A DNA stretch of 64,000 nucleotides from Planctomycetota bacterium (GCA_046290465.1 JBKAGP010000001.1:640001-704000), one strand, 5' to 3'; shown: positions 43,931-56,705, counted from the first letter of the stretch. A program made the numbers and translations. Notes: generated from the sequence alone by a model not told the origin.

Positions 43931-45193
43931 CTAGAAGTAGAGCGTCGCCTGCGCGTAGCCGACCTGACGCTGGTCGTCGTCGATCGCGTAGCCGGCGCCG
44001 ACGTGCAGGCCGGGCCGCACCATCTTGCCGACCAGCAGGTCGAACTCGAGTTCGCCGAGCTGGGTCGCCGCGCCGTCGCGGTCGAGGGTCAGCACGGTCG
44101 CGGTGCAGTCGAGGTCGAAGCCCGGCGTGAACTGCGCGCTCAGCTGGTTGGTGTCGAGGTCACTGCGCCAGATGCCGCCGTACTGGTGCAGCAGGCCGGC
44201 CGAGTTGAAGTCGGCAGGGTTGATGTGCAGCGCGCCTTCACTGTCGGTGCGGGTGAACGCGACCGCGCGCAGGAAGCCGCAGCAGGGCTCGTCGAAGGTG
44301 TATTCGAGGCGCGCGCGGTAGGCGGTGACGTCGTCGCCCATGTCGACCGAGCGGTGGGCGAACTGCGCCTCCCATTTGAGGTTCTCGGTGAAGTGGCCGA
44401 CGCCTTCGAGGCCGGCCCAGTTGTCGTTGGCGTTGCGCTGCACGTCGCCGTCGTTGGTGCCGGTCATGAAGTAGGCGTTGAGGGTCTCGAGCAGTCCGTC
44501 CTCGCAGGCGTTCCAGCGCGCGGTGCCGCCGGCGTAGCGTTCGCCGCCGCCGACCAGCTGGCTCTGCAGCGGACCGTAGTTGTCGAACGCGAACGCCTCG
44601 ACGTCGATGTCGCCGAAGCTGCGCGACACCCAGATGCCGGTGAACGCACCGGGGTACTGCAGGAAGTCACACGAGCCGAGCACCATGCCGTTGGCGAGGA
44701 AGTAGTTGCTGCGGCCGATGCGGATCCGTTCGTCGAAGCCGAACGCGTCCTCCAGCTGCATGTAGGCCTGCGCGATGCCGTTGAAGTTCTCGCGGGACAG
44801 GATGCCGTTCGGTCCCTGCTGGAACGGCGCGGCGTCCGAGTAGCCCTCGGCACCGGCCCAGACCTCCGAGTAGTTGAACTCGACGTAGGCCTGCGCCCAC
44901 TCGTTGACCTCGTAGTCGAGCTGCAGGCGCGTGCGCGTGCTGTAGTTGTCGTTGGCGTTGTAGGGGGCGTCGTCCGGGGTCTCGGCGAAGCGACCGCGCA
45001 GGCGGGTGTCGCCGGTGAACCGCAGCTTGTCGGAGCGCAACGTCAGGCCGGTGTCGACCCGTTCGACCTCGTCGCCGGGAGGGGCGAAGCTGAAGCAACG
45101 GTTCTGCGGTGAGTAGCACTGCTGCGCCACCGCGACCTGGGACACGCAGAGGACCGCAGCCACCGTGGCTGCGGTCGAGAGGAGCTTGATCAT
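43931..45193 (-). CDS. Outer-membrane beta-barrel (alginate-export-like porin)
   Basis: Signal peptide, GDTRLR, RTRLQLDY, QAYMQL, IRIGR, alternating beta strands and terminal Phe (ATLYF). Confidence 0.75.
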   Translation of the reverse strand: MIKLLSTAATVAAVLCVSQVAVAQQCYSPQNRCFSFAPPGDEVERVDTGLTLRSDKLRFTGDTRLRGRFAETPDDAPYNANDNYSTRTRLQLDYEVNEWAQAYVEFNYSEVWAGAEGYSDAAPFQQGPNGILSRENFNGIAQAYMQLEDAFGFDERIRIGRSNYFLANGMVLGSCDFLQYPGAFTGIWVSRSFGDIDVEAFAFDNYGPLQSQLVGGGERYAGGTARWNACEDGLLETLNAYFMTGTNDGDVQRNANDNWAGLEGVGHFTENLKWEAQFAHRSVDMGDDVTAYRARLEYTFDEPCCGFLRAVAFTRTDSEGALHINPADFNSAGLLHQYGGIWRSDLDTNQLSAQFTPGFDLDCTATVLTLDRDGAATQLGELEFDLLVGKMVRPGLHVGAGYAIDDDQRQVGYAQATLYF

Positions 45194-45516
45194 CTGGCTT
45201 GCTCTGCTGTGAGAGAGTGGCGGCCGATGCCGCGGAGCAAGTCGATGACGTGGAAGCTGGAGAGCGCCGTGAACTCTTGGCTCAGAAGTTCAGGGGGAAC
45301 CGACCGGCTCCCCGGCTCTCCACGGAACCTGCTCCGTGGATCAGCCAGGGGTTGCTTCACGTGTATGGAAGCAATGGGGTCTGGATCGGTCGGTCGATCA
45401 CGCGACGAACCATATCGCGCAGCCGCGACGGCGGACGTCGCGAATTGTCGCGAAGTTGTCCGGCAAAGCCTGCGTTGCCGTGCAGCGCTTGGGTTTGCCA
45501 TTGCATCGCCGCGCCG

Positions 45517-45533
45517 CTGGCAGGTTCAATGCG
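45517..45533 (+). promoter_or_regulatory. Possible sigma-54 (-24/-12) promoter for the dsrE operon
   Basis: CTGGCAGGTTCAATGCG has exact GG-N10-GC spacing and lies about 280 bp upstream of dsrE. Confidence 0.45.
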
Positions 45534-45814
45534 CGCTGTCCCGGAACGCGCACCCGCCGATGAACCACCCCCGCAGACATTGACACCCCTGAGCCCGGCC
45601 CGGGCGGGGTGCGGTCTGCGCCCCTCATCGGCCTCTCGCTGCCGTTCCGACGCAGGCGTAGCGCATCGCGCTCGCACGGCTTGGGGCGGGCGGGGTCGTG
45701 TGCCTTGGTCAGGCTCTCGGACGGACACGCGCCGTTCCGCTGGATCGATCCACACCGAGCCCCTTGACCCGAACCCTGAGCCCCGAACCCCGAACCCCGG
45801 GGCAAGCCGAAGCC

Positions 45815-46180
45815 ATGAGCAACACATTCTGCGTCACCATCACCGAGTGCAAGACCAACGAGGACAAGGCCACGCTCGGCTTCGTCGTCGCCAACGCCGC
45901 GGTCGGCAGCGAGAAGGAGACGATGGTCTTCCTGAGCGCCGACGGCGTCTGGGCCGCCGTGCAGGGGGAGATGGACAAGGTCGCGGCCGGCGAGCCGTTC
46001 GTGCCGCTGAAGGAGCTGGTCGACAAGTTCGTCGCCAACGGCGGCAAGATCCTGGTCTGTTCGCCGTGCATGAAGAAGCGCGGCATCACCGAGGACCAGC
46101 TGGTGGCGGGTGCGACCCCGGCCGGCGGTGCCGCGCTGGTCGAGTGGCTCGCCAACGGTTCGCCCAGCGTCGGCTACTAG
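45815..46180 (+). CDS. DsrE/DsrF-like family protein
   Basis: ATLGFVVANAA, VFLSADGV, GGKILVCSPCMKKRG. 121 aa. Confidence 0.88.
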   Translation: MSNTFCVTITECKTNEDKATLGFVVANAAVGSEKETMVFLSADGVWAAVQGEMDKVAAGEPFVPLKELVDKFVANGGKILVCSPCMKKRGITEDQLVAGATPAGGAALVEWLANGSPSVGY

Positions 46181-46190
46181 GGAACGGTCC

Positions 46191-46946
46191 GTGCTGACCC
46201 CCGAACAACTTGCCGGACTCGAGCCCGACCGCGTCTTCGACGGCGGCGCGCTCGACTGCGGATCGGGTCTGGTGCTGCTGATCCGCGAGAACATGCTGCC
46301 GGTGCCCGACGCCGGCGTGCTCGAGATCCGCAGCGTCGAACGCAGCGTGCGCGACGACCTGCCGCCGTGGTGCCGGATGGTCGGCCACGAGTTCCTCGGC
46401 GCGCTGCCGGGGGCGAGCCCCGAGCAGGCGCGCTACTTCGTGCGGCGCGGCGGCGGCGCGGCGATGCAGCAGGAGGCGGCCGCGCTCGAGCAGGACAAGC
46501 AGCGCGCGCGCGACTACCAGTGGCGGCTGCGGGCCCGTTCGTCGGCGCCGCTCGAGACGTCGGTCTACTGCCGCAACTTCCAGTGGCGGATCGGGCAGCC
46601 GGCCAGCTTCGAGGAGCAGGACGCCAACCCGTCGGCGATCGAGTCGCTGGTCGGAGCGCTGGCGGGGGACCTGGTGACCGGGTTCGCGGTCGCCGCATCC
46701 CGGGCAGGCCTGCAGGTCGACGACATCGAGTTGACCGCGCGGGCCCGCCTGCACGACGTCACCGCACACCTCGGCCTGGTCGAGGGCGACCCTTCGATCG
46801 AGTCGATCGAGGCGCGTCTGTTCGCGTCGACGTTCGACGACGAGGCGCGGGTGCGGGCGGTCTGGGACCAGACCGTGCGCCGGTCGCCGCTCGCTGCGAC
46901 GCTCCGCAAGGCCACCCGGCTCCACATCACCCTGGCAATCGTCTGA
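46191..46946 (+). CDS. TusA/SirA-like sulfur carrier fused to an OsmC-like domain
   Basis: FDGGALDCGSGL..IR, G.LEIRS, DLPPWCRMVGHE, YFVRR. C-terminal OsmC-like NPSAIESLVGALA...RRSPL. Confidence 0.82.
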   Translation: MLTPEQLAGLEPDRVFDGGALDCGSGLVLLIRENMLPVPDAGVLEIRSVERSVRDDLPPWCRMVGHEFLGALPGASPEQARYFVRRGGGAAMQQEAAALEQDKQRARDYQWRLRARSSAPLETSVYCRNFQWRIGQPASFEEQDANPSAIESLVGALAGDLVTGFAVAASRAGLQVDDIELTARARLHDVTAHLGLVEGDPSIESIEARLFASTFDDEARVRAVWDQTVRRSPLAATLRKATRLHITLAIV

Positions 46947-46960
46947 CCGAGGAGAGGCCG

Positions 46961-48115
46961 ATGTTTTCCGTTACCCAGGTCGGCAGCTGGCCGCGTTCGC
47001 GCAAGCTGCTGCAAGCCCTCCGCGACAAGCAGCAGGGGCGTGCGAGCCGCGCCGAGTTCGAGGCCGTCGCCGACGAGGAGGTGCGTCGCTGCGTCGCGCT
47101 GCAGGTCGAGGCCGGGGTCGACGTGGTCGTCGATGGCGAGCATCGACGCGACAACTTCTACTCGTTCGTCACCGACAAGCTGTCCGGCACCCGGCTGATG
47201 TCGCTGGCCGAGATGCTCGAGTCGATGGAGGACAAGGCGGCGTTCGAGGAGATGCTCGAGACGCTCGACGTGCCGGCGTCGGCGATCCGCAACCCGACCT
47301 GCACCGGCAGGCTCGAACGGCGTGAACCGCTGGCGACCGAGGAGCTGCGGTTCGTGCAGCAGCTGACCGACAAGCCGGTCAAGGTCTCGCTGCCCGGGCC
47401 GTACCTGCTGACCCGTTCGATGTGGGTCGGGGCGTTCTCGCGCGCCGGCTACGACGACAAGACCGAGATGGGCGACGACGTGGTCCGGATCCTGCGCGAG
47501 GAGCTGATCGAACTGCGCGACGCGGGCGTATCGTTCGTGCAGTTCGACGAACCGGTGCTGACCGAGGTCGTGATGAGCGACGACAACGACCGGCGAACAT
47601 TCATGTGAGCCACCCTTGCTACCCGCCGTGATGCGGGTGCCGAACTGGAATACGCCGCGACGCTGCTCAACCGGGTCGTCGACGGCGTCGACGGGGTGCG
47701 TACGGGGGTGCACGTCTGCCGCGGCAACTGGAGCCGCCAGGAGGACGTGCTGCTGACCGGGGACTACGAACGGCTGCTGCCGGCCTTCCGCGCGATGCGC
47801 GTCGACCAGTTCGTGCTCGAGTACGCGACGCCACGCGCCGGCGAGCTGTCGGTCGTCGGCCGTGCCCTCGCCGATCGCGAGCTGGGGCTCGGCTGCGTCA
47901 ACCCGCGCACCGACGAGGCCGAGGATCCGGCGACGATCGTGGCGCGCGCCGAGGAGGCGCTGGCGTACTTCCGCCCGGAGCAGGTGTTCCTCAACCCGGA
48001 CTGCGGCTTCGGCTGCTTCGCCAATCGCTGCGTCAACGTCGAAGACCACGCGGTCCAGAAGCTGCGCAGCATGGTCGCGGCGGCGCGGCAGCTGCGGGAG
48101 CGGCACGGCGGATGA
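46961..48115 (+). CDS. Cobalamin-independent methionine synthase (MetE C-terminal/core-type) family enzyme with in-frame TGA at codon 216, probably selenocysteine
   Basis: SD GAGGAG. Motifs VGSWPRS, DGEHRR, VSLPGP, VQFDEP, then TGA 47606-47608, then the same frame continues through HVCRGNW, LEYATPRAG and NPDCGFG to 48115 (384 aa in total). SECIS-like hairpin at 47618-47640. Confidence 0.85.
47618..47640 (+). promoter_or_regulatory. Candidate bacterial SECIS element
   Basis: GC-U(bulge)-ACCCGC / loop CGUGAU / GCGGGU-GC. The loop starts 19 nt after the UGA and has G as its second base. Confidence 0.7.
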
Positions 48116-48726
48116 GCGCGTCGGCCGACGACGACGACGAGACGGGCGATCCGCGCACGGTGGCGGCGCTCGCCGACGCGGCGGCGTTGACCGGTGCTCC
48201 GTGCCGGCGCTGCAGCAGGGCGCTGTGCGGCCACGAAGCGGTCTACTGCCTGGTGCTCGGCTACAAGGGGGCACCGCACTGCCTGCCGTGCATCGCCGCG
48301 CACATGGGCGAAGCGCTCGCACCGCTGCGCGAACGTGGCTTCGAATACGTGCGGCACCACGACTGCTTCCTCACCGCGTGGCGGCACGCCGGCGACCTCG
48401 AGGGCCATGCCGGAGTCGATCGGCCGCCGTGCGTGTTCGCGCTCGACGAAGATCCCGCCGCTGCGGCGCAGGCGGGCGCAGGGCGCGATGCGGTGGCCGA
48501 GGCCCAACCGTCCGGGCATGCGAGCTGGGACGCCGGCGGCATGGGCTGTGGCGACCTCGTGCTCGAACTGCGCCAGCGGCTGGCGAAGCTGCCGCCGCGC
48601 GGCCTGCTGCACCTGATCGCCACAGACCCTGGTGCGCCGACCGACCTGCCCGCCTGGTGTTCGATGACCGGGCACACGCTCGAGTCCGCCGAGCACCCGG
48701 ACTATCGCATCCGCCGCCGCCCCTGA
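48112..48726 (+). CDS. Cys-rich putative metal-binding domain fused to a TusA/SirA-like domain
   Basis: ATGA overlap. CRRC....C, HCLPC, HHDC, then WDAGGMGCGDLVLELR, ATDPGAPTDLPAWCSMTGH, YRIRR. Confidence 0.85.
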   Translation: MSASADDDDETGDPRTVAALADAAALTGAPCRRCSRALCGHEAVYCLVLGYKGAPHCLPCIAAHMGEALAPLRERGFEYVRHHDCFLTAWRHAGDLEGHAGVDRPPCVFALDEDPAAAAQAGAGRDAVAEAQPSGHASWDAGGMGCGDLVLELRQRLAKLPPRGLLHLIATDPGAPTDLPAWCSMTGHTLESAEHPDYRIRRRP

Positions 48727-48758
48727 ACGGCCGGCGGTCGCCTGCACGCGGGCTCGGC

Positions 48759-49121
48759 TCAGAGCCGCACGTTCTCGCGGCGCATCTCGCCGTCGTCCTG
48801 CTCGACCAGCCGCACGAAGTGCGCGCCGCGCGCGAGCGACGAGCGCTGCAGCAGCGGCCGCAGCACGCCGAGCAGCTGGTCCTCGTCGGGGCCGCAGAAG
48901 AACAGGATGCACTCGCCGCCGCCGAACTCGTCGCCGTCGTACTCGCCGACGCCCGCGTCCAGCACCGCCGCCTCGAGCTGCTCGGCCAGCAGTTCGATCT
49001 GGGCACGCTCTTCGTGCGTGCCCATGTTGCGGTTGCTCAGCCGGAGCACGACGAGCAGGTCCCGCTCGTCGGCGGGATCCTCGTCGTCGAAGCCGAAGTC
49101 GGGCAGGTTCTGGTCGCTCAT
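48759..49121 (-). CDS. Small acidic hypothetical protein
   Basis: MSDQNLPDFGFDD...GVGEYDGDEFGGGECILFFCGPD, 120 aa with coding-like codon bias. Confidence 0.7.
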   Translation of the reverse strand: MSDQNLPDFGFDDEDPADERDLLVVLRLSNRNMGTHEERAQIELLAEQLEAAVLDAGVGEYDGDEFGGGECILFFCGPDEDQLLGVLRPLLQRSSLARGAHFVRLVEQDDGEMRRENVRL

Positions 49122-49159
49122 CGCGAGCAAGTCTAGCCCGACGGGGGCCGGCCGCGCGA

Positions 49160-50296
49160 CTACGGGTCGAGCGTCAGCGTGTCGGCGGTGGCGACGATCG
49201 CGAAGGTCGTCGGGTCCTGGCTGACGGCGCTGGCGTAGGTCGTGATGCCGAGCAGGGCGGTGGCGCTGGGCAGGCCGAAGTAGACCGCGTCCCGGTCGTT
49301 GTCGACCGTGCCGTAGGCGAGCGGCAGCGACGCGACCGCAAGCGTCAGGCCGTCGACCGTGAAGTTGCTCTGCCAGCCGTTGGCCGGATCGATCTGGAAC
49401 GCGCCACACGCCGGCGCGGTGAAGCCGATCAGCAGGATGTTGGAGTCGCCCGGCTCGCCGGCGTTGCGGCACACGTAGCCCGGCAGGTTGGGGTCGTACT
49501 CGACGTAGGTCACGCGCAGGCCACCCGCGAACAGGTTGTTGTTGGCGTTGCCGCCGTTGCGGTCGTCCATCCAGGTGACGACCACGTCTCCGCGGGTGGT
49601 GACGGCGACCACCGCGTCGGCGTCGGCGTCGATCGCCGCCGGGTCGACCAGTTCGCAGTAGGTCCAGGTCGTGCCGAAGTCGTAGGTGAACGCGACCGCC
49701 GCCGGGTCGGCGCCGGCGATGTTGTCGACGAACGTCACCGCCGCGTAGCTGCCGTGGCAGTCGAGCAGCGGCGTGCTGGTGTTGCCCTGCGAGATCAGCG
49801 TCTCGGTCTGCAGGCCGGCGAGGAAGTCCGCGCCGCCGTTGGGGTCGGTGACGACGAACGTCTGGTTGGCGCCCGAGCGGTCGTCCTCGTAGCTGACGTA
49901 GAGCGCGCCCTCGGGCGTGCAGCCGACGGCCATGCCGTCCGAGTCGACGCCGGCGGGCGACATGCTGACCACGACCGGCGGCACGAACGTGCCCGGCGCG
50001 CCCGAGGTCGTGCTGAGGTAGAGGTAGCAGTCGTCGTCGCCGCCGCGGGAGTCCTCGGTGAACACCGCCACCGAGTAGTTCGGCGCCTGGCCGAACACGC
50101 ACAGCTGGCTCTCGCGCTGCGCGGCGAACGTGGTCGGCGCGGCGAACGAGGTCAGGTTCTGTTCGGCGCCGAAGGTCGCGCCGTCGTCGGTCGACACCCG
50201 GATGACGGTGTCGTTCCAGTTGTTGTTGCCGACGCCGGCGGCGGCGCGGTCGTCCTGCCAGCCGACCACGACCAGGTCGTCGACGCAGGCCACCAT
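49160..50296 (-). CDS. BNR/sialidase-like beta-propeller protein, apparently lacking its N-terminus
   Basis: Asp-box-like STDDGATF and TYDFGTTW, repeated W.DDR / EDDR / EDSR blades. No signal peptide at ATG 50296. Confidence 0.65.
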   Translation of the reverse strand: MVACVDDLVVVGWQDDRAAAGVGNNNWNDTVIRVSTDDGATFGAEQNLTSFAAPTTFAAQRESQLCVFGQAPNYSVAVFTEDSRGGDDDCYLYLSTTSGAPGTFVPPVVVSMSPAGVDSDGMAVGCTPEGALYVSYEDDRSGANQTFVVTDPNGGADFLAGLQTETLISQGNTSTPLLDCHGSYAAVTFVDNIAGADPAAVAFTYDFGTTWTYCELVDPAAIDADADAVVAVTTRGDVVVTWMDDRNGGNANNNLFAGGLRVTYVEYDPNLPGYVCRNAGEPGDSNILLIGFTAPACGAFQIDPANGWQSNFTVDGLTLAVASLPLAYGTVDNDRDAVYFGLPSATALLGITTYASAVSQDPTTFAIVATADTLTLDP

Positions 50297-50555: not shown

Positions 50556-53500
50556 TTGGCCACGAACTCGAAAACCACCTCCCGCAGGGCCGCTCCGGCG
50601 GCGCCGAAGCGGGCCCGCAAGAAGGCCCGCAAGAAGGCCCGCAAGAAGGCAGCTGGGGCGCCGGCGCAGGCGCCACAAGTCGTGGTGCGGGGGGCGCGTG
50701 AGCACAACCTGAAGAACGTCGACCTGGCGTTCCCGCGTGATTCGCTGACGACCTTCACGGGCGTCTCGGGCTCCGGCAAGTCGAGCCTCGCGTACCACAC
50801 GATCTACCAGGAGGGCCAGCGGCGCTTCCTGGAGAGCCTGAGTTCGTATGCGCGGCAGTTCCTCGGGCGCATGGAGAAGCCCAAGGTCGACCACGTCGAA
50901 GGCCTGTCGCCGACGGTCTCGATCGACCAGAAGTCGACCAGCCACTCGGCGCGCTCGACGGTCGGCACGCTGACCGAGGTGATGGACTTCCTGCGGCTGT
51001 GCTGGTCGCGGCTGGGCGAGCCGAGCTGTCCCGAGTGCGGCGCGGCGATCGAGTCGTGGTCGCCCGATCGCATCGTCGACGCGATCGTCGCCGAACACGA
51101 CGGCCAGGCCGCGATGGTGCTGGCGCCGGTGGTGCGCGAGCGCAAGGGCGAGTACCGCAAGGAGCTGGTCGAGTGGGCGCAGAAGGGCTTCGTGCGGGCG
51201 CGCATCGACGGCGTCGTGCGCCGCCTCGACGAGGACATCCAGCTCGAACGCTACGTCTAGCACACGATCGAACTGGTCGTCGATCGCCTGACGATCAAGC
51301 CGGAAGTGCGGTCGCGGCTGGCCGAGGCGGTCGAGCAGGCGGTGCAGCTCGGCTGTGGCCTGTGCACGCTGGTCGACGGCAAGGGGCAGGACGACCGGCT
51401 GTTCTCGACCCAGCGCAGCTGCCCGGACGGCCACGGCGCGCTGCCCGAGATGGAGCCGCGGCTGTTCTCGTTCAACAGCCCGATCGGCGCGTGCCCGAGC
51501 TGTGACGGCATCGGCGAGACGTTCGGTTTCGCGCCGGAGCTGTTGGTCCAGGACGAGAACAAGTCGATCCGCGACGGCGCGCTGCACGTGTTCACCGACC
51601 AGGGCCGGCTGGTCTACGGGCGGTTGACGATCGAGCACCTGCAGGGCGTGCTCGAGGCGTTCGGCGGCGACGTCGACACGCCGTGGAAGAAGCTCGGCAA
51701 GCGGGTGCAGAAGGTCGTGCTGCACGGCTCGGGCAAGAAGAAGTTCGAGTTCAAGTGGCAGCGCAAGACCGCGATGTTCACGACCTCGGGCAGCGACAAG
51801 GTCGCGTTCCCCGGCGTGCTCGGCCACCTGGAGAAGGTCTACCGGCCGTCGCGTGCGCGGCACCTGGATCGCTTCCGGGCCGCCACGCCGTGCGCCGAAT
51901 GCGACGGTTCGCGGCTGTCCGCGGCGGCGCGGGCGGTCACGTTCTGCGGCCGCACGTTGCCCGAAGTGCTGGCGATGTCGGTCGACGACGCGCTGGCGTG
52001 GGTGCGTGCGATCGAACTGAGCGGCAACGACCTGCGCATCGGCCGCGACATCCTCAAGGAGATCGACCGGCGGTTGACGTTCCTGGCGGACGTCGGCCTC
52101 GGCTACCTGACGCTGGCGCGCCGCGCCGCGACGCTGTCGGGCGGCGAGTCGCAGCGGATCCGGCTGGCGGCGCAGGTCGGTGCCGGCCTGCGCGGCATCC
52201 TCTACGTGCTTGACGAGCCGAGCATCGGCCTGCACGCGCGCGACCAGCAGCGGCTGCTCCGCACGCTCGAAGCGCTGCGCGACCGCGGCAACACCGTGGT
52301 CGTCGTCGAGCACGACGAGGAGACCATGGAGCGCAGCGACTTCCTGGTCGACGTCGGCCCCGAGGCGGGCGCGCACGGCGGCCGGGTGGTGGCGGCGGGC
52401 ACGCCCGACGAGGTCAAGGACAACCCCGCGTCGATGACCGGCCGCTACCTGCGCGGCGACGTGCAGGTGCCGATGCCGGCCGAACGCCGCCGCGAGGATC
52501 GCGGGGCGCTGCGGGTCCGCGGCGCGCGCCACCACAACCTCGACGGCCTCGACGTCGACCTGCCGCTCGGCCGGCTGACCGCGGTCACTGGGGTTTCGGG
52601 TTCGGGCAAGTCGACGCTGGTGCACCACGTGCTGGTGCCGACGATCAAGGATCACCTCGCCGACAAGGGCGTCGCACCGGCGCACTGCAAGGCGGTCGAC
52701 GGCATCGACCAGATCGACAAGCTGGTCGAGATCGACCAGAAACCGATCGGGCGCACGCCGCGCAGCAACCCGGCGACCTACACCGACGTCTGGACCCACG
52801 TGCGCGACCTGTTCGCGATGCTGCCCGAGTCGCGGCTGCGCGAGTACAAGAAGGGCCGGTTTTCGTTCAACGTCGCCGGCGGCCGCTGCGAGGAGTGCCA
52901 GGGGGCCGGCGTGAAGACGCTGGAGATGAACTTCCTGGCGCCGGTCGAGGTCGTCTGCGAGGAGTGCGCCGGCGCGCGCTTCCACGCCGACACGCTGGCG
53001 ATCCGCTTCAAGGGCAAGAGCGTCTACGACGTGCTCGAGATGACCGTCGAGGATGCCGCGGCGTTCTTCGCGGACCTGCCCAAGATCGCGCGCGGCCTCG
53101 ACGCGCTGCTGGCGGTCGGCCTCGGCTACCTCAAGCTCGGCCAGCCGTCGACGACGCTGTCGGGCGGCGAGGCGCAGCGGGTCAAGCTGGCGACCGAGCT
53201 GCAGCGTCCGGCCACCGGTCAGACGCTCTACATCCTCGACGAGCCGACCACCGGCCTGCACTTCCAGGACGTGGCGCGCCTGCTCGACGCGCTGCAGCGA
53301 CTGGTCGACGCCGGCAACAGCGTGCTGGTCATCGAACACAACCTCGACGTCGTGCGCGCCGCCGACCACCTGATCGACCTCGGCCCGGAGGGCGGCGTCG
53401 GCGGAGGCCGGCTGGTCGCGACCGGCACGCCCGAGGAGGTCGCCGACCTCGACGACTCGCACACCGGCAGGGCGCTGCGCGCGATGGGGCTCGGCAAGAA

Positions 53501-56500
53501 GCGCCGCCGCAAGGCCGCCAGGAAGGCCGGCAGCCAGGAAAGCGACAAGGGTGGGGCCGCGAGCGCGCGCAGCGCGCCGCCCGAGGCGATCTCGGTGCGC
53601 GGCGCGCGCACGCACAACCTGCAGGCGGTCGACTGCGACGTGCCGCTGGGCAGCTTCACGGTCGTCACCGGTCCGTCGGGGTCGGGCAAGTCGAGCCTGG
53701 CGTTCGACACGATCTTCCAGGAAGGGCAGCGCCGTTTCCTCGAGAGCATGTCGACGTACGCGCGCCGCTTCCTCGGCCGCATGGACCAGGCGCCGGTCGA
53801 CAAGCTCGACGGGCTCGGCCCCGCGATCGCGATCGACCAGAAGCGCACCGGCCGGAGTCCGCGCTCGACGGTCGCGACGACCACCGAGATCCACGACTAC
53901 CTGCGTCTGCTCTACGCGCGCACCGGCCGGCACCACTGCCCGACGCACGGCCAGGAACTGGTCGCCTGGTCGCCGAGCAAGGCGGCCGCGCACCTGGTGC
54001 AGCAGCACGCGGGGGCGCGCGCCTACGTGCTGGCGCCGGTGACCGTGCCCGTGCTGAAGGGCAAGGCGGCGGTGCAGTGGCGCGACGCGCTGCTCGAGCA
54101 GTGGCGCACGGCCGGCTTCGTGCGCGCGCTGGTCGACGGCGAAGAGCGGCGCCTCGACGACGACTGGGGGCGCAAGCTGCCCGGTTCGCTCGACCTGGTG
54201 GTGGACCGCACCACGCTGAAGGACCGCACCCGCCTGGCCGACGCGATCGAACAGGCGCAGGCGCAGACCCGCGAGCACGACGGCCAGGTCGCCGCGGTCG
54301 TGCAGGTGGTGCCGAAGGACGCCGAGCCGGAGCGGCACTGGTTCGGGGCCGAGCCGAGCTGCGAGCACTGCGACTACCGCGCGCCCAACGACCCGCACCC
54401 GCGCTGGTTCTCGTTCAACCACCACAGCGGCGCGTGCAGCAGCTGCCTCGGTCTCGGCAAGGTCGTGCTGTGCGCCGAGGAGCTGCTGGTCAACCACCCG
54501 CACAAGCCGGCGTTCGGCGGCGCGATCTCGCACAGGGGCGGCCACTTCACGTTCCTGACCGGGACCGACGGTTACTACCACGAGGTCGCGTCGGCGGTCG
54601 CCGAACGGTTCGGCTTCGAGCTCGAGCAGCCCTGGAACAAGCTGAGCAAGCAGGCGCGCGAGATCCTGCTGCGCGGCGCCGGTGACGAGCGGTTCGAGGT
54701 CGTCTTCAAGAAGGACGACGGCGGCCGCAAGCGCGAATGGCGCATGAAGGTCGCGTGGAAGGGCTTCGCCAGGCAGGTCGAGGACTGGTTCCACGGCCGC
54801 GACGCCGACCACGAGGACGGCGACGATCGGCTGGCCGCGGTGATGCGCAGCGAGCTGTGCCCCGTCTGTGAGGGCGATCGCCTGCAGCCGGGACCGCGGC
54901 ACGTGCGGGTCGGCGGCGTGCGCATGCCGGAGGTGCTGGCGCAGACGGTCGACCAGGCCAGCGAGACGCTGGCGAACCTGCAGCTCGACCGCACCGAGCA
55001 GCGCATCGCGGCCGACGTGCTCAAGGAGCTCGAGCACCGGCTGTCGTTCCTGCGGGAGACCGGCCTCGGCTACCTGTCGCTGGACCGCTCGGCGGCGACG
55101 CTGTCGGGCGGCGAGGCGCAGCGCATCCGGCTGGCGACGCAGCTCGGCAACAAGCTGGTCGGCGTGCTCTACGTGCTCGACGAGCCGACCGTCGGCCTGC
55201 ACCCGCGCGACACCGAGCGGCTGCTGAAGACGCTGCTCGACCTGCGCGACCTCGGCAACACGGTGCTGGCGGTCGAACACGACGAGGTGATGGTGCGCGC
55301 CGCCGACCACGTGCTCGACATCGGGCCGGGTGCCGGCGTGCGCGGCGGCAAGGTCGTCGCCAGCGGCAAGCCGGCCGAGATCGCCGGCAGCGGCACGCTG
55401 ACGGGCCAGTGGCTGAGCGGCACGCTGCCGATCGAACGGCGCGAGGCGCCGCGCGAAGCCGCCGGCTACGTCGAGCTTCGCGAGGTGTCGGTGCACAACC
55501 TCGACCGCGTCGACGTCGACGTGCCGCTCGGCGTGTTCACCGCGATCACCGGCGTGTCCGGCTCGGGCAAGTCGTCCTTGGTGATGGACGCGCTGGTGCC
55601 GCAGCTCAAGGACGGCAGCGTCGACGTCGTCTGGAACGACGAGGAAGAACGGCACCACCAGCTGATCGTGGTCGACCAGTCGCCGATCGGGGTGTCCCCG
55701 TCGAGCAACCCGGCGACCTACACCAAGGCGTTCGGGCCGATCCGCGAGCTGTTCGCGGCGACCCCGCTGGCGCGCCAGAAGGGCTTCGGCGCCGGTCGGT
55801 TCTCGTACCACGTCGCCGCCGGCCGCTGCGCCAACTGCGAGGGCAAGGGGCAGATCCAGGTCGAGATGCACTTCCTCGCCGACGTCTGGGTGACCTGCGA
55901 GATCTGCCGCGGCAAGCGCTACAACCAGGAGACGCTGACGGTCGAGTACCGCGGCAAGAACATCGCCGACGTGCTGGCGATGGACGTCGACGAGGCGCTG
56001 CAGTTCTTCGGCAACCACAAGAAGATCGTGCGGCCGCTGCAGCTGCTGCACGACGTCGGCCTCGGCTACCTGACGCTCGGCCAGCCGGCCAACACGTTCT
56101 CGGGCGGTGAGGCGCAGCGGATCAAGCTGTGCGCCGAGCTGCAGCGCCGGCCGAGCGCGCACACGATCTACGTGCTCGACGAGCCGACCACCGGCCTGCA
56201 CGCCGACGACGTGCAGAAGCTGCTGCGCGTGCTGCAGCGGTTGCTCGATCGCGGCGACTCGGTGATCTGCATCGAGCACCACCTCGACGTGATCGCCGCC
56301 GCCGACCACGTGATCGAGATGGGGCCCGAGGCCGGCGACGGCGGTGGACGCTGCGTCGCCGCGGGAACCCCCGAAGCGCTCAGCAGGATCCAGGCCAGCC
56401 ACACCGGCCGGTTCCTGAAGGACCACCTGCAGGCGCTCGCCACCGCGGGCGCAACGGCCAGCGAGAAGGCGGCGCCGCGGAAGAAGGGCGCTCGGAAGAC

Positions 56501-56705
56501 GGGCGCGACGAAGAAGGCGCCCGCGAAGAAGGCCCCCGCGAAGAAGGCCCCCGCGAAGAAGGTCCAGAAGAAGAAGGTCCAGAAGAAGAAGGCCCAGTCC
56601 AAAAAGGCCCAGACGAAGAAGGCCCCGAACACCACGGGGCAGCAGCAGAAGGCTCAGGGAGCGCGGCGCAGCGCGTCGCGCAAGACCCGAGAGGAGATCG
56701 GATGA
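50556..56705 (+). CDS. uvrA: Double-length UvrA (two complete UvrA units in tandem) interrupted by an in-frame TAG at codon 235
   Basis: Four Walker A G.SGSGKS motifs, four [LF]SGGE signatures, four LDEP Walker B motifs and several CxxC pairs. ORFs ending at 51260 and resuming at 51306 are in the same frame across the TAG at 51258-51260. TTG start assumed. Confidence 0.88.
56481..56630 (+). repeat. About ten 15-bp coding repeats encoding a histone H1-like [10 protein letters not shown] tail of UvrA
   Basis: aagaaggcccccgcg and aagaaggtccagaag units in tandem. Confidence 0.85.

Follow-up and report, generated by a model that had tools for sequence, protein, structure and literature searches.

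The closest described relatives of the enzyme treated here are the MetE methionine synthases (T. maritima, structures 1T7L/1XDJ, and E. coli), in which a PF01717 barrel carries a His/Cys/Glu/Cys set of zinc ligands and three residues that hold homocysteine by its amino-acid end, as listed in the part of Price et al. 2021 (PMC7857596) available to us. MesA-MesD, also covered there, have a single barrel, and MesD requires MesX and oxygen. An algal MetE-fusion from Phaeocystis antarctica (Rao et al. 2024, PMC10861871) joins a MetE-like barrel to a PP-binding phosphopantetheine arm and a flavin adenine dinucleotide (FAD) disulfide-oxidoreductase domain; according to the accessible part of that paper, it is induced at low B12, is exchanged with MetH and is called a B12-independent methionine synthase from its induction, its activity being unassayed. 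TusA and DsrE proteins serve in relays such as Tus tRNA thiolation, Dsr and sHdr, and the OsmC/Ohr fold is that of thiol peroxidases. Here we describe a Planctomycetota bacterium locus in which a MetE relative stands beside TusA-like, DsrE-like and OsmC-fold domains. It occupies positions 45815-48726 of a 64,000-nucleotide stretch (GCA_046290465.1 JBKAGP010000001.1:640001-704000; hereafter the window), and its third gene very probably encodes a selenocysteine (Sec)-containing enzyme within a conserved cassette. The features, including a hairpin of the selenocysteine insertion sequence (SECIS) type, are as follows:

45815-48726, plus strand: operon of four coupled genes, namely DsrE-like, TusA-like::OsmC fusion, single-barrel MetE-family enzyme and Cys-rich::TusA-like
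45815-46180, plus strand: gene 1, DsrE-like carrier, 121 aa, CSPC at residues 82-85; PF02635
46191-46946, plus strand: gene 2, TusA-like::OsmC fusion, GTG start, 251 aa, DCGSG at 22-26 and PPWC at 58-61; PF02566
46961-48115, plus strand: gene 3, MetE-like enzyme, 384 aa when the TGA at 47606-47608 is read through; PF01717
47606-47608, plus strand: in-frame UGA (candidate Sec216) in the context RTFM-U-ATLA
47621-47638, plus strand: SECIS-type hairpin beginning 12 nt past the UGA, with a 6-bp stem ACCCGC/GCGGGU and loop CGUGAU
48112-48726, plus strand: gene 4, Cys-rich::TusA-like protein, 204 aa, GCGD at 145-148 and PAWC at 180-183; PF01206

The genes are spaced as tightly as a preliminary description of the window had stated, with gaps of 10 and 14 bp and then an ATGA at which the start of gene 4 overlaps the stop of the MetE-like gene. 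That description had also placed a possible Sec at residue 216, and homologue alignments together with codon counts now mark this as a genuine Sec/Cys position. Opposite UGA216, every full-length homologue has a Cys, first in an alignment of 13 and then in one of 59 (59/59). We compared two sets of loci: a genome set of the 80 best-matching (nearest) loci, from contigs of one genome per species, in which codon 216 is TGA in 72, TGC in six and TGT in two; and a second set of 80 metagenome-contig loci centred on Cys-type relatives, in which it encodes Cys in 74 and is TGA in six. Contigs of three other runs, from three studies, keep the TGA and carry two synonymous differences just past it.

The distance from the UGA to the hairpin presumably matches that in E. 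coli fdhF. Among 73 sequences, 96.1% of the hairpin's pair cells hold standard pairs, the changes include two compensatory replacements and five from G-C to G-U, and the loop G is kept in 70. Third-codon positions within the stem show entropies of 0.00, 0.29 and 0.18 bits, against 1.5-2.0 bits at neighbouring four-fold sites, and on reading the sequences, unfolded, all of the Cys-type loci (8/8) deviate from the ACCCGCCG(T/G)GA(T/C)GCGGG core at hairpin positions. The region has no advantage in folding energy over shuffled sequence (z = -0.70), which counts against the Sec reading; the case for the hairpin is made by its conservation and not by its energy.

The same folding result, and the fact that standard gene callers end the gene at 47608, are what favours taking the TGA as a true stop, so that three carrier genes would stand beside a broken or split pseudogene. 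We consider this extremely improbable: in 72 of the 80 genome loci the reading frame continues past the TGA and stays conserved, every full-length homologue has Cys at this codon, the hairpin shows conservation even at synonymous positions, the contigs of the three other runs retain the TGA, and the genome holds Sec machinery, with matches to SelA (367.9 bits), SelD (352.1), SelB (353.7) and tRNA-Sec (72.8). SelD was detected in three of five genomes tested; it was found neither in an archaeal Cys-type genome (G005) nor in one Sec-type metagenome-assembled genome, the completeness of both not being given. The selD gene of the Planctomycetota genome (outside the window, at G000:C1:1309619-1311717) is the immediate neighbour of selA, in the same orientation, and has one in-frame TGA; it is probably a selenoprotein gene itself.

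The Sec-type enzyme is embedded in a conserved neighbourhood, and the lack of conservation that would have told against the preliminary description was not seen. Among the 66 Sec-type loci with at least 1.6 kb of upstream sequence, a TusA::OsmC fusion stands directly upstream of the enzyme in 63 and a DsrE gene in 62, and the four-gene arrangement is far beyond chance. Throughout the genome set, a DsrE homologue was found in 64 loci, a TusA-like gene in 66 and an OsmC-containing match in 75. Going by record titles, taxa with the cassette include Planctomycetota, Acidobacteriota, Desulfobacterota, Bacteroidota, Gemmatimonadota, Calditrichia, Eisenbacteria, Krumholzibacteriia and Armatimonadota. 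The usual gene order is short TusA, DsrE, TusA::OsmC, enzyme, the short TusA-like gene upstream of DsrE replacing the Cys-rich::TusA gene of the window in most related loci; the long Cys-rich::TusA form, present in 10 of the 80, lies downstream of the enzyme in eight and upstream of DsrE in two (L027 and L034). All-versus-all clustering of open reading frames (ORFs) in the flanks of the 80 loci, where high-GC shadow ORFs pollute the clusters, gave no conserved neighbour beyond the four genes.

Several arrangements depart from this order. In two Verrucomicrobiales genomes, the Sec-type enzyme has no carriers beside it, and the TusA-DsrE-TusA::OsmC trio is encoded elsewhere in the genome. The trio stands alone in L103 (G003:C176) and L104 (G001:C91), without a MetE-like gene within about 1.5 kb downstream, and both genomes encode a Sec-type enzyme elsewhere. 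The DsrE homologue of L029 and the TusA::OsmC homologue of L053 each contain one in-frame stop within an otherwise full-length match. In one database protein (P0123), a DCGGG-type TusA domain is naturally fused to the enzyme.

The enzyme itself matches Meth_synt_2 (PF01717) at 114.1 bits (cut-off, 21). The MetE N-terminal barrel PF08267 reaches just 21.6 bits against a cut-off of 27, over a 57-residue stretch, and so the N-terminal folate barrel is absent. The single catalytic barrel that the preliminary description had recognized was recovered by Pfam, by the AlphaFold2 (AF2) model, with a predicted local distance difference test score (pLDDT) of 87.2, and by Foldseek, in which the model matched the catalytic barrel of T. 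maritima MetE (1T7L; TMq 0.76, E 1e-20, about 21% identity) as well as the single-barrel structures 3RPD (TMq 0.73) and 1YPX. None of the four operon proteins reaches the cut-off of any NCBIfam model. All ten methionine-synthase-type models fall below theirs (best, 177 bits against 406), among them TIGR01371 for canonical two-barrel MetE (97.7 against 929.95); the models that we take to stand for MesA-MesD gave 82-177 bits against cut-offs of 258-406, and by sequence the enzyme is not a member of those families.

Seven residues are invariant in 60 sequences: S9, E60, D196, H251, C253, E287 and C348. By correspondence with the roles given in the available part of PMC7857596, H251, C253, E287 and C348 are the zinc ligands and S9, E60 and D196 the homocysteine-binding residues. 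A 28-residue loop (197-224) connects the DEP strand to the following barrel helix and includes a short helix that bears Sec216; this loop has the lowest confidence of the model (pLDDT about 57-69), and we read it as a putative mobile lid over the active site. A search for long relatives returned P0122 (758 aa), whose extra C-terminal part has no Pfam match, and, beyond P0122, P0123 and P0124, only canonical MetE, with no fusion of the algal type. In P0124 (1143 aa), a YxjG-like single barrel is fused, as the third barrel, to the C-terminus of a canonical two-barrel MetE.

Compared with MetE, the enzyme lacks the folate barrel, adds an invariant Cys/Sec on the long loop that follows the DEP strand, and has obligate-looking partners. 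It resembles MesA-MesD in being a single barrel that keeps the zinc and homocysteine residues and probably uses a non-folate donor. A further likeness to MesD/MesX is the dedicated partner protein, together with the structural match to 3RPD; the partner here is an OsmC-fold protein and not DUF1852, for which the four operon proteins gave no Pfam match at E <= 0.01, the rest of the genome not having been searched. Neither the Sec/Cys residue nor the thiol carriers are described for the Mes families in the sections of PMC7857596 available to us. The algal MetE-fusion offers a parallel to the pairing of the enzyme with thiol carriers, or in some relatives with a flavoprotein; its accessory folds are ACP and Pyr_redox, those here TusA, DsrE, OsmC and an acyl-CoA-dehydrogenase-like (ACAD-like) fold.

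Because the homocysteine-binding residues are intact, homocysteine/methionine chemistry is the leading candidate. The dedicated pathway of the preliminary description stands insofar as the genes form one conserved unit around a single barrel without a folate barrel; its examples of methanethiol or generic organosulfur assimilation are disfavoured by those intact residues. We tentatively propose, as a possibility to be taken seriously, a carrier- and redox-coupled step at zinc-bound homocysteine that proceeds through a covalent Sec216 intermediate. The thiol activated by zinc would be that of homocysteine or of a nearly identical amino acid. Sec216, carried on its mobile lid, would transiently bind the group that is added to or removed from this sulfur, in a covalent Se-S or Se-C linkage. 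With the OsmC-fold domain docked on the enzyme, the Cys pairs of TusA, DsrE and TusA would deliver either the moved group or the two electrons that resolve a selenenyl-sulfide, thereby resetting the enzyme. The net reaction would be a folate- and cobalamin-independent, carrier- and redox-coupled S-alkylation of homocysteine, probably of the methionine-synthase type. This proposal draws on the invariant substrate-site residues, the low-confidence loop that bears residue 216, the near-constant OsmC-fold partner, the carriers encoded beside the Sec-type enzyme (or elsewhere in the two Verrucomicrobiales genomes) and the natural TusA::enzyme fusion P0123. MesD with MesX and the algal MetE-fusion are precedents for single-barrel MetE-like enzymes that depend on additional parts. 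A complex prediction for a Cys-type enzyme with its own TusA::OsmC protein (locus L197) gave a score of 0.28 (mark, 0.32), which weighs neither for nor against docking.

The carriers themselves keep their reactive residues. The DsrE-like protein matches PF02635 at 56.2 bits (cut-off, 22.7), and in 64 aligned rows (the window and 63 homologues) C82 and C85 of its CxPC motif are invariant, with C6 kept in 97% and C12 in 86%. In gene 2, a TusA-like domain spans residues ~9-87, with C23 in DCGSG and C61 in PPWC, both invariant in 66 sequences. Aligned with hhalign to the TusA domain of gene 4, it scores 98.4% probability (E 5e-15) with both cysteines matched, a comparison that identifies the N-terminal third of gene 2 as a further TusA-like domain, homologous to that of gene 4. 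The C-terminal third of gene 4 matches TusA (PF01206) at 37.1 bits (cut-off, 28.6) and places its cysteines at C146 in GCGD and C183 in PAWC.

The canonical TusA motif is CPxP. As the preliminary description had noted, the window domains carry CG instead (DCGSG and GCGD), and the 11 short upstream TusA-like genes listed read GCG(D/E) or TCG(R/E). The motifs it had listed, CSPC, DCGSG and GCGD with a second Cys in PPWC and PAWC, are all in the sequence and invariant in relatives. The N-terminal half of gene 4 (48112-48530) has no Pfam match. This Cys-rich domain occurs in 11 of 81 sequences (the window and 10 of the 80 genome loci), and these 11 long forms share seven invariant cysteines and one histidine (C31, C34, C39, H41, C57, C60, C85 and C107), a set that could bind zinc or an iron-sulfur cluster.

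The Pfam families and the conserved Cys at the carrier positions are those of the described TusA/DsrE relays. The system here differs in its C-G-x-(G/D/E) motif where CPxP is standard, in the invariant second Cys and in the fusion of one domain to an OsmC fold; its end-user is a MetE-like enzyme, for which our literature search found no description. The window's CSPC matches a DsrE-like UxxC selenoprotein (PF02635, in the available part of PMC13188914) with Cys in place of Sec, the motifs being compared and the positions unaligned. Since each carrier keeps a Cys pair, the set fits a dithiol or redox relay as well as a persulfide relay.

Loci of Cys-type relatives add two further arrangements and show what is constant among them. 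Twelve loci of the second set have the TusA-DsrE-TusA::OsmC cassette with a Cys216 enzyme (context A). In context B, the enzyme is accompanied by a stand-alone OsmC-fold gene, an acyl-CoA-dehydrogenase-like flavoprotein and a protein resembling solute-binding proteins (SBP-like); in context S, by a stand-alone OsmC-fold gene only. The nearest NCBIfam models for context B are the Rv1679 (flavoprotein) and Rv1680 (SBP-like) families, both below cut-off, and our literature search on Rv1679/Rv1680 found nothing functional. Context B operons with a Cys-type enzyme were seen in L099 (2331-6149), L092 (2100-6146), L127 and about 20 more loci. The presence of this context in Verrucomicrobiales as well as in Nitrososphaerales suggests that the whole unit was transferred between domains.

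An OsmC-fold partner was found in 133 of 161 loci within the available stretch, and in 77 of 79 with at least 3 kb upstream and at least 2 kb downstream. Because it is near-constant over the three contexts, the core is the enzyme with an OsmC-fold protein, TusA/DsrE being one of several modules. The preliminary description had made the sulfur relay the defining partner; the OsmC-fold protein takes that place, and many Cys-type relatives have no TusA or DsrE.

These contexts bear on the main rival to the alkylation proposal, in which the relay would load sulfane sulfur on Sec216 as Se-S(-) and the zinc site would then make or modify a four-carbon amino-acid thiol, for example homocysteine persulfide, or homocysteine built from an activated homoserine with no need of free sulfide. 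The TusA and DsrE families are established carriers of persulfide. Linkage between the relay and the Sec-type enzyme is tight, P0123 has a TusA domain naturally fused to the enzyme, the amino-acid-binding residues are conserved, and predicted sulfurtransferase selenoproteins (rhodanese-like and DsrE-like UxxC) have Sec in place of the carrier Cys in the part of PMC13188914 available to us. The relatives of the flavoprotein and OsmC-only contexts, however, have no sulfur carriers, two cysteines per carrier, including the CxPC, look more redox-like, the genome has MetX-like and sulfhydrylase-type genes, and no MetE-family enzyme is known to insert sulfur. On balance we judge sulfur insertion rather unlikely.

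The OsmC-fold protein itself gives a lead on what the core does. The C-terminal half of gene 2 (residues ~105-251) matches OsmC (PF02566) at 30.7 bits (cut-off, 27.5), and its AF2 model (pLDDT 91.4) is best matched in Foldseek by OsmC-like 1lql (TM 0.85 on target), with 2onf, 1ml8 and 1qwi also found. In the alignment, the window domain has Asp and Ser at what we take to be the two catalytic Cys columns of OsmC. It shares fold and Pfam family with OsmC/Ohr thiol peroxidases but lacks both catalytic cysteines, and is therefore not a two-Cys peroxidase. The second column is Ser in nearly all partners of the enzyme family. The first varies with residue 216: it is Cys in 12 of 12 context A loci with Cys216 and in 21 of 22 context S loci, in none of 69 context A loci with Sec216 (Asp 29, Ser 27 and Ala 13, the window having Asp), and it is Asp in 22 of 24 context B loci, where the flavoprotein is present.

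These patterns suggest that a reactive OsmC Cys may cooperate with residue 216 and may be dispensable with Sec216 or a flavoprotein; if so, the cycle would hold a two-electron or covalent exchange step. In the enzyme tree, one all-Cys clade holds contexts A, B and S, and a second is mostly Sec with nested Cys lineages. We treat the covariation as a lead and not as a statistic, because the evolutionary events are few and the two main clades carry most of it.

The same covariation is one reason to consider that the system instead performs thiol redox or repair chemistry, in which Sec216 would attack an oxidised sulfur (a mixed disulfide or S-oxide) of a homocysteine- or methionine-type substrate at zinc, and the OsmC-fold protein with the Cys-pair carriers would then reduce the selenenic acid or selenenyl-sulfide. 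The first OsmC Cys varies with both residue 216 and flavoprotein presence, the fold of OsmC is that of thiol peroxidases, a CxPC is present in the DsrE-like protein, and Sec/Cys pairs are typical of redox-active residues according to the accessible part of PMC13188914. Set against this, the His-Cys-Glu-Cys zinc site is where MetE alkylates its thiolate, reductases are not known among proteins of the MetE-type fold, and the OsmC domain of the window has neither catalytic Cys; we regard this explanation as unlikely.

The preliminary description had also allowed for selenium as the relayed element. In a selenium-handling pathway, the carriers would bind selenium and the enzyme would transfer or methylate it, serving detoxification or the salvage of selenium amino acids. 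Only Sec-decoding genomes harbour the Sec-type enzyme, as they must by necessity, and the OsmC domain has a weak likeness to the NCBIfam model named 'OsmC-related (seleno)protein', with 22.5 bits where the cut-off is 95. Such a role became less likely with the Cys-type members: they occur in the flavoprotein and OsmC-only contexts and in the archaeal genome G005, in which SelD was not found (completeness not given). No selenium gene lies near the operon in the window, and Sec is inserted during translation, for which no relay is needed. We consider selenium handling very unlikely.

Homocysteine S-alkylation must also be set within the metabolism of the organism. The genome encodes MetH (1688.6 bits), no other PF01717 gene, and a MetX-like gene adjoining a pyridoxal-phosphate (PLP) sulfhydrylase-type gene, with two further such PLP enzymes. 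Roles as the sole homocysteine route or the sole methionine route were rejected on account of these genes. Of 151 genomes of the phylum, 20 have the enzyme family, nine have canonical MetE and one has both. In the same phylum sample, G007:C206 and G061:C54 have enzyme-family matches with one TAG in the matched frame, which could be read-through of a gene end or a break.

A number of points weigh against the alkylation proposal. With MetH, the MetX-like gene and three Cys/Met PLP enzymes present, the operon fills no obvious pathway hole. Canonical MetE occurs in 1 of 20 genomes with the enzyme family and 8 of 131 without it, neither avoidance nor attraction, and the idea of a MetE substitute gains nothing from these counts. 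An Rfam search detected no B12, S-adenosylmethionine (SAM) or other riboswitch ahead of the operon in the window, and none in 13 related loci, where the single match was one tRNA. The covariation of Cys/Sec with the OsmC cysteine rests on few evolutionary events. Many relatives have neither TusA nor DsrE, for which reason these carriers are not part of the core chemistry. We know of TusA and DsrE as sulfur carriers, not as carriers of methyl groups or electrons.

One variant of the S-alkylation proposal operates at the formaldehyde level and would make the enzyme and its OsmC partner a redox-coupled methionine synthase of a new kind, which we think distinctly unlikely. Zinc-bound homocysteine would capture a one-carbon unit supplied as methylene-folate or as free formaldehyde, the thionium so formed would react with Sec216 to create an S-CH2-Se link, and a partner thiol would attack selenium and free the S-methyl group, like the selenoether step of glycine reductase. 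The two electrons would come from the Cys-pair carriers here, from the flavoprotein in aerobic relatives and from the FAD domain in the algal MetE-fusion. If true, this variant would explain both the recurrence of one core with three unrelated redox modules and the preference for selenium in the Sec-type clade.

We searched the literature for a selenoprotein MetE-like enzyme with TusA, DsrE or OsmC partners and found no description in the main texts covered, the coverage being incomplete. Term searches in the accessible text and table of the May 2026 review of the prokaryotic selenoproteome (PMC13188914) returned no PF01717, methionine synthase or homocysteine entry, and the deep-Sep paper contained none of the terms for such a system. 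New here are the enzyme-OsmC core, its three contexts, the covariation of Cys/Sec with the OsmC cysteine and the synonymous-site test of the hairpin.

Around the operon, the 45194-45814 interval (~620 bp) holds no convincing gene and separates the operon from a divergent outer-membrane-like gene (43931-45193, minus strand). A promoter scan ahead of the operon found no sigma-70-like site, and the one terminator-like site in the promoter and terminator scan, at 45472, is within chance; Rfam matched no family in 44800-49200 at E <= 1. In the RNA run X20, only short, imperfect pieces matched the 64-kb stretch. Further downstream, 51306-56705 (plus strand) is a 1799-aa ORF that looks like a tandem fusion of two UvrA-type ABC ATPases and has a tail rich in lysine, and its opposite strand carries a 1963-aa shadow ORF.

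The locus thus represents a widespread selenoprotein family that is absent from the accessible table of the May 2026 review, and its recognition corrects a systematic annotation error by which the gene is called a truncated or split methionine synthase. A two-protein core of a MetE-like enzyme and an OsmC-fold protein recurs with three accessory modules in bacteria and archaea, which points to a redox- or carrier-dependent homocysteine reaction absent from current maps of methionine and sulfur metabolism. If the proposed homocysteine S-alkylation is true, the enzyme would be a fifth kind of 'core' methionine synthase, and a true B12- and folate-independent methionine synthase of this type would bear on the vitamin B12 dependence of marine and sediment microbes.

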